In this document: piece by piece, positions 331-2,629 of the stretch
How positions within the stretch are numbered: position 1 is the stretch's first letter
Layout: each line of letters starts with the position of its first letter
Virus record (IMG/VR): IMGVR_UViG_2671180460_000009
Direction: 5' to 3' (one strand)
From: a virus
Taxonomy: Duplodnaviria > Heunggongvirae > Uroviricota > Caudoviricetes
Length of the DNA stretch: 4,314 nt
Notes under the pieces: model-generated
Database searches by the model: none
Seen by the model: the letters and a program-made list of their open reading frames with translations, nothing else
Told to the model about the DNA's origin: nothing
Translations under genes and position numbers: made by a program

Positions 331-358
331 ACGCCACCGCCTGTGGTGGTGTTTTTCT
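331..358 (+). terminator. Rho-independent terminator of the upstream gene
   Basis: ACGCCACC (331..338) pairs with GGTGGTGT (345..352) as an 8 bp stem with one G-U wobble, 6 nt loop GCCTGT, followed by a T-run (352..356), 16 nt after the TAA stop. Confidence 0.55.
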
Positions 359-359
359 G

Positions 360-443
360 GCTGGTGTTATTGAAAATATTTTCAGATATATATTACCTGG
401 ACGATGGTTAAGATTAATTTATTTAATTTTGGAGAGAAAACTC
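360..443 (+). promoter_or_regulatory. Putative promoter and ribosome-binding region for the first cargo gene
   Basis: AT-rich intergenic DNA; TTGAAA (370..375) is a possible -35, with several TATA-like hexamers downstream but none at ideal spacing; Shine-Dalgarno GGAGAG at 431..436, 7 nt before ATG 444. Promoter hexamers are by eye only. Confidence 0.3.
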
Positions 444-902
444 ATGAAACTGTTAAACATTCTTTTATCTGTTGTTTTAACTGTAAGTGCAACCGTCGCA
501 CAAGCAGAATCGGCATTGTGGAAGCGTAACAGTGTTGCCGGAACTGATATGTTCAGTATTGGTAATGTTTCTATTAACTGCACGACTAATCCAGAAGACA
601 ACAATTTGCTACCGCACTATGTGTGGATTTACGGTCATACCCCCACCCCGCTAAATCAGTACGATTCTGATATCATTTTTATCATCAACGGTAAAGAGTA
701 TCCGGTCCCACCTGTCGACGGAACACGAATGAATGAGAACGAATGGGTACACTTTATCGATGCTATCGGTGAAGCCACGAAGTTCGACGTTTTAGTAAAC
801 GGTAAGAAAGTTGACAGCTATACCACAAATATCAAAAATGTGAAAAAGATTTTGGGTAACAAATTCTACGGCAGCTGCTGGAGCACCTGGTTCCAGGAAT
901 AA
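444..902 (+). CDS. Exported hypothetical protein, 152 aa, cleavable Sec signal peptide, two cysteines
   Basis: ATG 444 preceded by GGAGAG; N-terminus MKLLNILLSVVLTVSATVAQA|E has a basic residue, hydrophobic core and AQA signal peptidase I site; Cys46 and Cys145 in the mature part; AT-rich codon usage. The ORF-track start at 429 is a TTG with no better RBS. No family recognised. Confidence 0.8.
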   Translation: MKLLNILLSVVLTVSATVAQAESALWKRNSVAGTDMFSIGNVSINCTTNPEDNNLLPHYVWIYGHTPTPLNQYDSDIIFIINGKEYPVPPVDGTRMNENEWVHFIDAIGEATKFDVLVNGKKVDSYTTNIKNVKKILGNKFYGSCWSTWFQE

Positions 903-1027: not shown

Positions 1028-1567
1028 ATGAACTGGCATTATGAAAAAAATGGTGTACGTTATGATAACGTAACAGAGGAAGATATTATTGAACGTATCC
1101 GCCGTGGTGAACTGAATGCATCAACACTGGTGTGGCAATAGGGCATGCTGGAATGGCAGCCAGTTTCAGCCACATCACTGGCGGAAATACTGAAACAAAG
1201 TGAAGTTCCTCCGGCCCTTCCGGGTCACCGCATTCCCGGAGGCGTTGTCTGGACGCTGGCATTTGCCCCTTTGATTGGATACATACTTGAGATGTGGACT
1301 GCCGGGCTGAACGGTATGTCATTTGAACGGGCTTATGATGCAGTCAGCGAAGGCCAGTACTGGTTTATCTCTCTGATTCTGAATATTGCTCTGGGATATC
1401 TGGATGAACGAAAACTCCGTAAATCTGGCGTGGATACCACAGCATTTGGCTGGCTGGCATGGTTGATCCCGGTTTATCTGTGGCGTCGGGCAAAAATCCT
1501 CGGGCAAAAACCTGCTTATTTCTGGGTCTGGTTGGTTATGCTGATACTGGTGTTATTTACGGTCTGA
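1028..1567 (+). pseudogene. DUF4339 (GYF-like) domain fused to a 3-4 helix membrane region, interrupted by an in-frame amber codon at 1139..1141
   Basis: ATG 1028 has a strong AGGAG at 1017..1021 (6 nt spacing) and encodes MNWHYEKNGVRYDNVTEEDIIERIRRGELNASTLVWQ, then TAG, then the same frame continues as GMLEWQPVSA... into the 1145..1567 ORF. The W-Y-x-NG ... TLVW-x-x-GM-x-W pattern matches DUF4339 as I remember it, and the stop falls inside that motif. Downstream hydrophobic runs (VVWTLAFAPLIGYILEMWTAGL, YWFISLILNIALGYL, AFGWLAWLIPVYLW, AYFWVWLVMLILVLFTV) look like TM helices. ATG 1145 has no convincing RBS. Confidence 0.65.
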
Positions 1568-1836: not shown

Positions 1837-2250
1837 ATGAAAAATATCATCACTATTTTAATGATTGCAGTTATCAGTTTCTTTACTGCTAATGTATCAG
1901 CAAACAATGCCGTTCCTTTACCAACCAACCTGACTGATGTTACTGACGGTACAGAATTCTGGTGTCAGGGTACTGATACTATCGACGGAGGTTGTGAATA
2001 CCTGGGCACATCCAAAGACATGCAATACGGTCTGGTACACGCCATGGGGGGTACAGCGTGCTGGGATGGTTTATACGGCGTAATTAATTTCTATACCGGT
2101 AAAGCCCAGACCATCAAATACAACAACAATCAAAGTTGTGAAGGCAACATCACCGCCAGTTTCGTTACCCTGAAAAACGGTAAACCGGGCGTTAAACTTT
2201 ACGACAATACGATTCATAAGGTTGTCGGGCTTGACGAAATCAAATTTTAA
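1837..2250 (+). CDS. Exported hypothetical protein, 137 aa, cleavable Sec signal peptide, four cysteines
   Basis: ATG 1837 with GGAG at 1825..1828 (8 nt spacing); N-terminus MKNIITILMIAVISFFTANVSA|NN is a typical signal peptide with a VSA cleavage site; Cys43, Cys53, Cys75, Cys101 in the mature part; AT-rich codon usage; strong terminator 50 nt downstream. No family recognised. Confidence 0.8.
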   Translation: MKNIITILMIAVISFFTANVSANNAVPLPTNLTDVTDGTEFWCQGTDTIDGGCEYLGTSKDMQYGLVHAMGGTACWDGLYGVINFYTGKAQTIKYNNNQSCEGNITASFVTLKNGKPGVKLYDNTIHKVVGLDEIKF

Positions 2251-2336: not shown

Positions 2337-2629
2337 CTGAAAATACATGACGGGCTGTACATTACTTTTATTTTCCGAAGACCCTTTCTCACGCAAACAG
2401 ACAGTTGCTGTCATAACAGCTTACCGCAATGTGTTTATCCAGGAATGCATTTCCGGCGGATTATCCGCAACGCGGAAGGTCAGCGACGCTGGCGCTGCCG
2501 GAATTCTGAACCCGATGTAGGCAAATAACTTAATGCGTGGCTCACCAGTGAAGGGCTTCCCGGACAATAAACCTCATTCATTTCACCCATCAGGCCGCGT
2601 CTTCTCCGGGAGACGCGGCTTTTTCATTT
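2337..2629 (+). ncRNA. Candidate small RNA or regulatory leader bracketed by two terminators (hypothetical)
   Basis: About 260 bp with no ORF carrying a credible RBS; the only + strand ORFs here (70 aa at 2316..2528, which starts inside the terminator stem, and 57 aa at 2347..2520) lack a Shine-Dalgarno. The stretch is bounded by the terminator at 2301..2336 and ends in a second perfect terminator hairpin at 2594..2629. No RNA family recognised. Confidence 0.25.
2594..2629 (+). terminator. Rho-independent terminator or attenuator hairpin 40 bp upstream of the DUF932 gene
   Basis: GCCGCGTCT (2594..2602) pairs perfectly with AGACGCGGC (2611..2619), 9 bp GC-rich stem, 8 nt loop, followed by TTTTT (2620..2624) and CATTTA. 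Confidence 0.6.

Follow-up and report, generated by a model that had tools for sequence, protein, structure and literature searches.

To which family does a small exported protein of a mobile element belong when it resembles nothing at first reading, and what may it do for the element that carries it? The question is raised by a stretch of 4,314 nucleotides from a virus record assigned to the Caudoviricetes (IMG/VR record IMGVR_UViG_2671180460_000009; the whole stretch is hereafter called the window), and more precisely by its gene at positions 444-902, the target, for which a preliminary description made from the letters alone had seen no recognisable family. That statement was wrong. Sequence comparison shows that the target belongs, as a divergent branch, to the YfjT/YkfB family (Pfam PF27224), and it is an already-catalogued member of a functionally unstudied family, ordinary for an Escherichia coli island. 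We consider it rather probable that it is exported island cargo, namely a periplasmic binding module that is held by a disulfide and acts with an exported partner.

A divergent member of the YfjT/YkfB family

The assignment is carried by several searches. BLASTP aligned the target with YfjT of E. coli K-12 at 31% identity over 142 amino acids (aa; E 4e-22), and in a database of 5.8 billion proteins the clusters that are 99%, 89% and 74% identical to the target carry precomputed hits to PF27224 (the representative of the 99% cluster is P0001), a family that a second annotation source labels "YfjT". Both the target and YfjT match phrog_3429, and tblastn returned plasmid genes annotated as ykfB (E 8e-12). 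The RefSeq name is mostly "hypothetical protein", newer records reading "YfjT/YkfB family phage-associated protein" (two records, Prokaryotic Genome Annotation Pipeline, PGAP); a direct scan with a copy of Pfam that does not hold PF27224 gave a sub-threshold Laminin_G_3 only, and NCBIfam release 20 gave no match. An HMMER profile search of 1.84 billion representatives recovered 197 clusters at E <=1e-3, most of them stand-alone proteins of about 150 aa, and a word-indexed profile search with the broad alignment A2 returned 16 proteins only. The fusion partners of the longer members contained no informative Pfam domain except one DUF2939.

Conservation was read from an alignment of 106 diverse family members whose mean column identity is 20%. 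Its sole invariant residue is Cys46, followed by Trp26 (98%), Cys145 (97%), Gly33 (96%) and Trp101 (94%); the target carries all five, behind a Sec signal peptide and within the single domain of about 130 aa that makes up the YfjT/YkfB layout. The N-terminus (MKLLNILLSVVLTVSATVAQA followed by ES) has one basic residue (K2), a 16-residue hydrophobic core at 3-18 and A-Q-A before a predicted cut at 21/22, and a hydrophobic N-terminus is found in 91 of 99 full-length family representatives; residues 1-20 form a detached helix of low confidence in the AlphaFold model. The mature protein is computed at 131 aa, 14.9 kDa and pI 5.3. On these points the preliminary description held: the open reading frame (ORF), the signal peptide with its AQA site, the mature domain of about 131 aa and the cysteines were all confirmed on re-analysis.

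The cysteines at 46 and 145 are the only ones of the target, and 104 of the 106 relatives keep both, the two exceptions having aberrant C-termini. Extra cysteines in relatives lie nearly all inside the first 25 residues, that is, in the signal peptide, and two tandem-domain relatives have exactly two cysteines per domain, spaced 88-95 residues apart. The pair is thus conserved far more than chance would allow and, in an exported protein, this is strong indirect evidence for a single intradomain disulfide, Cys46-Cys145. The distant cysteine pair pointed out earlier is therefore real, and the bond that was proposed along with it keeps the rank of a prediction.

AlphaFold2 reached a mean predicted local distance difference test score (pLDDT) of 78.7 with 15 sequences and the values of Table 1 with the 106-sequence alignment, most of the mature domain lying at 91-97. 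The model runs through six beta-strands, a helix (95-108), two further strands and two helices (130-137 and 139-145), the last of which ends at Cys145. Foldseek against the PDB gave at best E 0.3 with a template-modelling (TM) score of about 0.25, and sequence profile searches of the PDB with alignments A1 and A2 gave noise only (a cGMP-kinase fragment at E 0.024, eL22 at E 0.007). The model thus suggests a confident alpha/beta fold that has, by comparison with the PDB, no convincing solved relative.

A variable cargo slot and a recurring exported partner

A search of 5426 complete E. coli genomes found the gene in 77, each time in the chromosome. The whole arrangement of the window occurs in the same number of genomes, and parts of it in 4870. 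In strain E2 the island lies beside tRNA-Ser and the ter (tellurite resistance) genes, and reads GTPase, dynamin-like, RdcB-like, patatin-like, target, DUF4339, 137-aa hypothetical, then DUF905 (frameshifted), DUF932, antirestriction, RadC, DUF987 and YeeU/CbtA; this order is the typical backbone of a CP4-type island. Strains 55989 and AHB19 carry other small signal-peptide proteins in the same slot, from the patatin-like gene to DUF932, and among them a different YfjT-family gene (43% identical). The slot with its alternative sets of exported proteins thus behaves as a hotspot for exported cargo, and since the whole arrangement and its parts differ so widely in occurrence, and the contents of the slot differ, the target qualifies as variable cargo. 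There is strong support for its place in a slot for variable cargo on an integrative island of the CP4 type. The slot encodes signal-peptide proteins of 155, 209 and 150 aa in AHB19 (L074 3444-5483) and of 227 and 136 aa in 55989 (L073 3451-4560).

The target also has its own place in transcription. Just 3' of the stop codon (313-315) of the patatin-like phospholipase gene lies a terminator-like hairpin (Table 1), which separates the upstream operon from the target, so that a stand-alone transcription unit is strongly supported. PGAP calls the identical coding sequence (CDS) of 459 bp in strain E2. A scan for the sigma-70 consensus found no promoter within 352-443, and an Rfam scan of the window found no RNA family. 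The region around the target is AT-rich, with 39-43% GC against 51-61% in the backbone genes.

Beyond E. coli chromosomes, family members turned up by tblastn in 37 plasmid records (29 conjugative), and IMG/VR holds 34 further loci. Two distant members, each with two cysteines, a signal peptide and a PF27224 match, come from phage-like contigs, one of 10.9 kb and one of 173 kb (L076 and L075, the latter from Logan); both contigs have a tail-tube match (Phage_TTP_14), L075 also a phiKZ-type one (phiKZ_gp29PR), and immediately before each family gene stand four small ORFs whose N-termini are hydrophobic. On these contigs the family members are embedded among dozens of small ORFs without a Pfam match.

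What most often accompanies the family was counted in 70 loci from species-representative genomes of Enterobacterales, Aeromonas, Oceanisphaera and Zobellella, all with a member 27-43% identical to the target; the neighbouring ORFs were clustered, and the counts cover the 66 loci in which the family member is called as an ORF. In 51 of them the family gene directly follows, in the same orientation, a gene for an exported protein or lipoprotein, either of the YfjS/YafY lipoprotein type (26), of a four-Cys type of about 157 aa (17) or of three other families (8), and in two further loci a DUF4339 gene stands between partner and YfjT-family gene. A YfjR-like regulator with helix-turn-helix (HTH) and WYL domains by Pfam lies two to three genes upstream in 46 loci. 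The typical context thus consists of YfjR, an optional small membrane protein, the exported partner and, last, the YfjT-family gene. The target departs from it, as do about 13 of the 66 other loci, which is why we do not use context to define membership.

A candidate partner is nevertheless encoded in the window. The 137-aa ORF downstream matches the four-Cys family (profile hidden Markov model, E 1.6e-11; jackhmmer recovers 18 of 18 members) and phrog_8968 (E 1.8e-37), gives no Pfam or NCBIfam match, and shares 35% identity with the 136-aa protein that E. coli 55989 encodes in this island slot. The window thus holds both halves of the recurring pair, in reversed order and with DUF4339 between them. 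The partner families (YfjS type, four-Cys type, c34) gave no significant common ancestry in hhalign (probability 1-17%); a C-x-G-G-aromatic motif is common to them and aligned. As for DUF4339, the in-frame stop of the window is CAG (Gln) in E2 and AST46, and Mixta tenebrionis (84% identity) and Yersinia similis (76%) have an intact DUF4339 gene immediately before a YfjT-family gene.

Table 1. Positions of the target gene, its signals and conserved codons, and the accompanying cargo genes in the window
Feature	Position	Strand	Remarks
Terminator-like hairpin and T-run	335..351	+	7-bp stem with 5 G-C pairs, tail TTTTTCTGGC
Shine-Dalgarno GGAGAG	431..436	+	7 nt before the ATG, read from sequence
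CDS of the YfjT-family protein, stop codon included	444..902	+	ATG start, 152 aa, TAA stop
Predicted signal peptide, residues 1-21, MKLLNILLSVVLTVSATVAQA	444..506	+	signal peptidase I site after AQA
Mature periplasmic domain (predicted), residues 22-152	507..899	+	AlphaFold model, pLDDT 90.2, predicted TM score (pTM) 0.81
Codon 26, TGG (Trp)	519..521	+	98% conserved in the family; TAG in 6/6 sampled copies of the 93% allele
Cys46 codon TGC	579..581	+	invariant in 106/106 relatives; in strand 42-47
Cys145 codon TGC	876..878	+	kept in 97% of relatives; end of the C-terminal helix
Co-cargo DUF4339 (GYF_2 domain and membrane segments), pseudogene	1028..1567	+	in-frame TAG 1139-1141
Co-cargo exported 137-aa four-Cys protein, "cluster 9" family, candidate partner	1837..2250	+

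Other observations concern the edges of this cargo. The window opens with a patatin-like phospholipase gene (1-315, + strand) whose 5' end lies outside it and for which PADLOC gave no match in the fragment present; this gene is the last of a conserved GTPase/dynamin-like/RdcB-like/patatin-like block found on many E. coli CP4-type islands (in E2, L001 6462-11916), and the block looks like a paralog of the chromosomal pair RdcA/RdcB (YjdA/YjcZ) to which a lipase has been added. About 50 bp after the stop of the 137-aa ORF, a strong inverted repeat (AAAGCCCC...GGGGCTTT, then ATTTTT; 2301-2336, + strand) is probably its terminator, missed by the consensus terminator scan because the loop exceeds 8 nt. 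A short ORF at about 2347-2520 (+ strand) takes the position of the frameshifted DUF905 gene of E2, and so is probably another decayed backbone gene.

Proposed role and the readings that compete with it

How would such a protein work? After export and cleavage at Ala21, DsbA would join Cys46, in the third strand, to Cys145, in the C-terminal helix, and the bond would fasten the C-terminal tail to the sheet. Once folded, the 15-kDa domain would stay periplasmic and act as a binding module without enzymatic activity, because conservation falls on Trp, Gly, Pro, Phe and Cys, which make up no catalytic set. It would most likely act with or on an exported partner, here possibly the four-Cys protein, since a gene for a second exported protein almost always precedes the family gene. 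That the pair modifies the envelope for the benefit of the mobile element, for instance by excluding incoming phages or elements, is a guess that we hold to be rather doubtful.

Two findings on relatives are hints towards the envelope. In the Keio collection, the strain deleted for ykfB resists the membrane-active peptide Smp43 at least 2-fold better (PMC8125054), and YafY, one of the paralogous YfjS/YafY-type partners and a lipoprotein of the inner membrane, activates Cpx when overproduced (PMC6538781). The only reported target of YfjR is its own operon (PMC8249747), and chromatin immunoprecipitation with exonuclease trimming (ChIP-exo) gave no YfjR binding (PMC8464067).

Several points weigh against the reading of a disulfide-held module that acts with a partner. 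The function of family members has been addressed by no experiment, and both ykfB and yfjT were listed as uncharacterised in a 2024 survey of the y-ome (PMC11551758). The disulfide is predicted from residue conservation. There is no YfjR in the window, and 935 bp and a pseudogene separate the target from the candidate partner downstream. PADLOC found no match between the target and a defence system, and tblastn of 50,697 phage genomes returned nothing at E 1e-5. Lastly, constraint on the gene is relaxed within E. coli, as its alleles indicate.

The 77 copies fall into 37 genomes at >=99% identity, the allele that is intact in the window and in E2, and 40 genomes at 90-95%. From the second group (the 93% allele, approximately) we sampled five chromosomal copies (E. 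coli O157:H7 7636, AST46, Bongo, ETEC1747 and EcE.CRE.COL) and one plasmid copy (pB39_V). All six have TGG changed to TAG at the codon of Trp26, a 1-bp deletion is added in five of them, and the annotation of the sampled broken copies (PGAP/RefSeq) leaves a remnant of 174 bp and 57 aa only. Between the window and the AST46 allele the ratio of nonsynonymous to synonymous substitution rates (dN/dS) is 0.62 for the target; the corresponding values for the 137-aa ORF and DUF4339, from the same two strains, are 0.27 and 0.05, and by this measure DUF4339 is, its stop codon in the window aside, under strong purifying selection. E. coli can clearly do without this cargo, which is partly decaying. The protein database also contains an intact variant, P0002, in which position 26 is Gln.

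The rival that survives best takes this decay further and supposes that the ORF, intact here, is no longer useful in E. coli and is becoming a pseudogene. The stop codon shared by all sampled copies of the other allele, the substitution ratio between intact and broken alleles, the break in the adjacent DUF4339 gene of the window itself and the small share of genomes with the gene all point that way. However, the allele of the window retains W26, G33, C46, W101 and C145, a good Shine-Dalgarno sequence and a signal peptide, 37 genomes carry it nearly unchanged, and an elevated ratio is what one would expect if drift were confined to the other lineage; we hold this explanation to be unlikely. A periplasmic immunity or inhibitor protein, directed against a toxin or enzyme that is either its co-encoded partner or an incoming effector or lysozyme, would share the export and the exported neighbour with the reading that we prefer, and seems to us quite improbable. 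A tie to the flagellum or to motility is more improbable still: transcription of ykfB starts from a FliA promoter that lies inside yafY, and deletion of ykfB leaves motility unaffected (PMC4183435); the scan for a FliA promoter 5' of the target was negative, with 9 of 16 positions at best.

The receptor- or glycan-binding subunit that the preliminary description had likened to AB5 B-subunits, lectins or pilins, on a superficial likeness in size, export and single Cys pair, is effectively refuted by the fold searches and the gene context, and we give it almost no credit. AB5 B-subunits (LT-B, SubB, PltB) are absent from the Foldseek results against the PDB, in line with the lack of sequence similarity already stated at the outset, and no A-subunit gene is adjacent, the neighbours being the patatin-like phospholipase, the DUF4339 pseudogene and the four-Cys protein without a Pfam match. 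Neither fimbrial nor type IV pilins appeared in the fold searches, the signal peptide is of the ordinary signal peptidase I type, and the 12 kb flanking the gene on each side in strain E2 contain no chaperone-usher or pilus assembly genes. Concanavalin A (ConA)-like lectins have in their favour the Laminin_G_3 match (E 0.041), which at 14.5 bits stays below the 27.6-bit cut-off; the model has three helices and no jelly-roll match above noise, and the only lectin matches in the fold searches were insignificant. The proposed check by AlphaFold2 and by Foldseek against the PDB has thus yielded the confident model, and none of the B-subunit, lectin or pilin folds.

Returning to the disulfide-held module and its exported partner, it is tempting to extend it to the whole family, in that a structurally new periplasmic domain and interchangeable exported partners would form an unrecognised two-protein envelope module for exclusion or envelope remodelling. 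We put this forward as a speculation that is more probably wrong than right. If it were true, the module would be one used by CP4-type islands, conjugative plasmids and jumbo-like phages, and the window would hold a split version of it (444-902 and 1837-2250). The gene of the window itself matters little, being a catalogued accessory gene that half of its E. coli carriers, judged from the sampled copies, have lost through a stop codon. The family is a small open question, with two K-12 paralogs in the y-ome and a confident model without a solved relative, and its pairing with a second exported protein under an HTH and WYL regulator on mobile elements suggests an envelope module. The association with the partner and the conserved putative disulfide may serve as starting points for work on CP4-type islands, prophage morons and the y-ome.

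Comparison with known systems

T4 Sp, T5 Llp and Cor are envelope proteins of phages and prophages that bring about superinfection exclusion. Like the target, they are small exported or lipoprotein accessory genes of mobile elements; the analogy is functional only, as no similarity of sequence or structure was found. Among solved structures, the closest with a near-full-length superposition are IalB of Bartonella (3dtd) and a periplasmic component of the flagellar motor (8z5n_A), over which 86 and 102-104 residues of the target superpose at 3.3-3.8 A; all three are small periplasmic domains built of a sheet plus helices.

The full-length homologues are YfjT (b2637, on CP4-57) and YkfB (on CP4-6) of K-12, with 155 aa against 152 aa in the target. 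Target and YfjT have in common the Sec signal peptide, N-C-T-x-N-P around the first cysteine, the C-terminal position of the second one, and the residues W26, G33, H58, D74, Y86, P89, G93, N99, W101 and F104; both lie on a CP4-type island, between GTPase/DUF932 and antirestriction/RadC genes. The target differs in the start of its mature part, which reads S-A-L-W where the family has P-N-x-W (74-76% conserved), and from YfjT in a longer C-terminal tail, GSCWSTWFQE; its branch, divergent from YfjT/YkfB, was found in these searches in E. coli only. The target follows the dynamin/RdcB/patatin block and a terminator in place of a YfjR regulator and a YfjS-type lipoprotein. Compared with the YfjS/YafY-YfjT/YkfB modules of the CP4 islands, the window likewise encodes a second exported protein, of a family that takes the YfjS position in 17 loci, with the order of the two genes reversed, a DUF4339 pseudogene between them and a soluble four-Cys partner instead of a lipoprotein.
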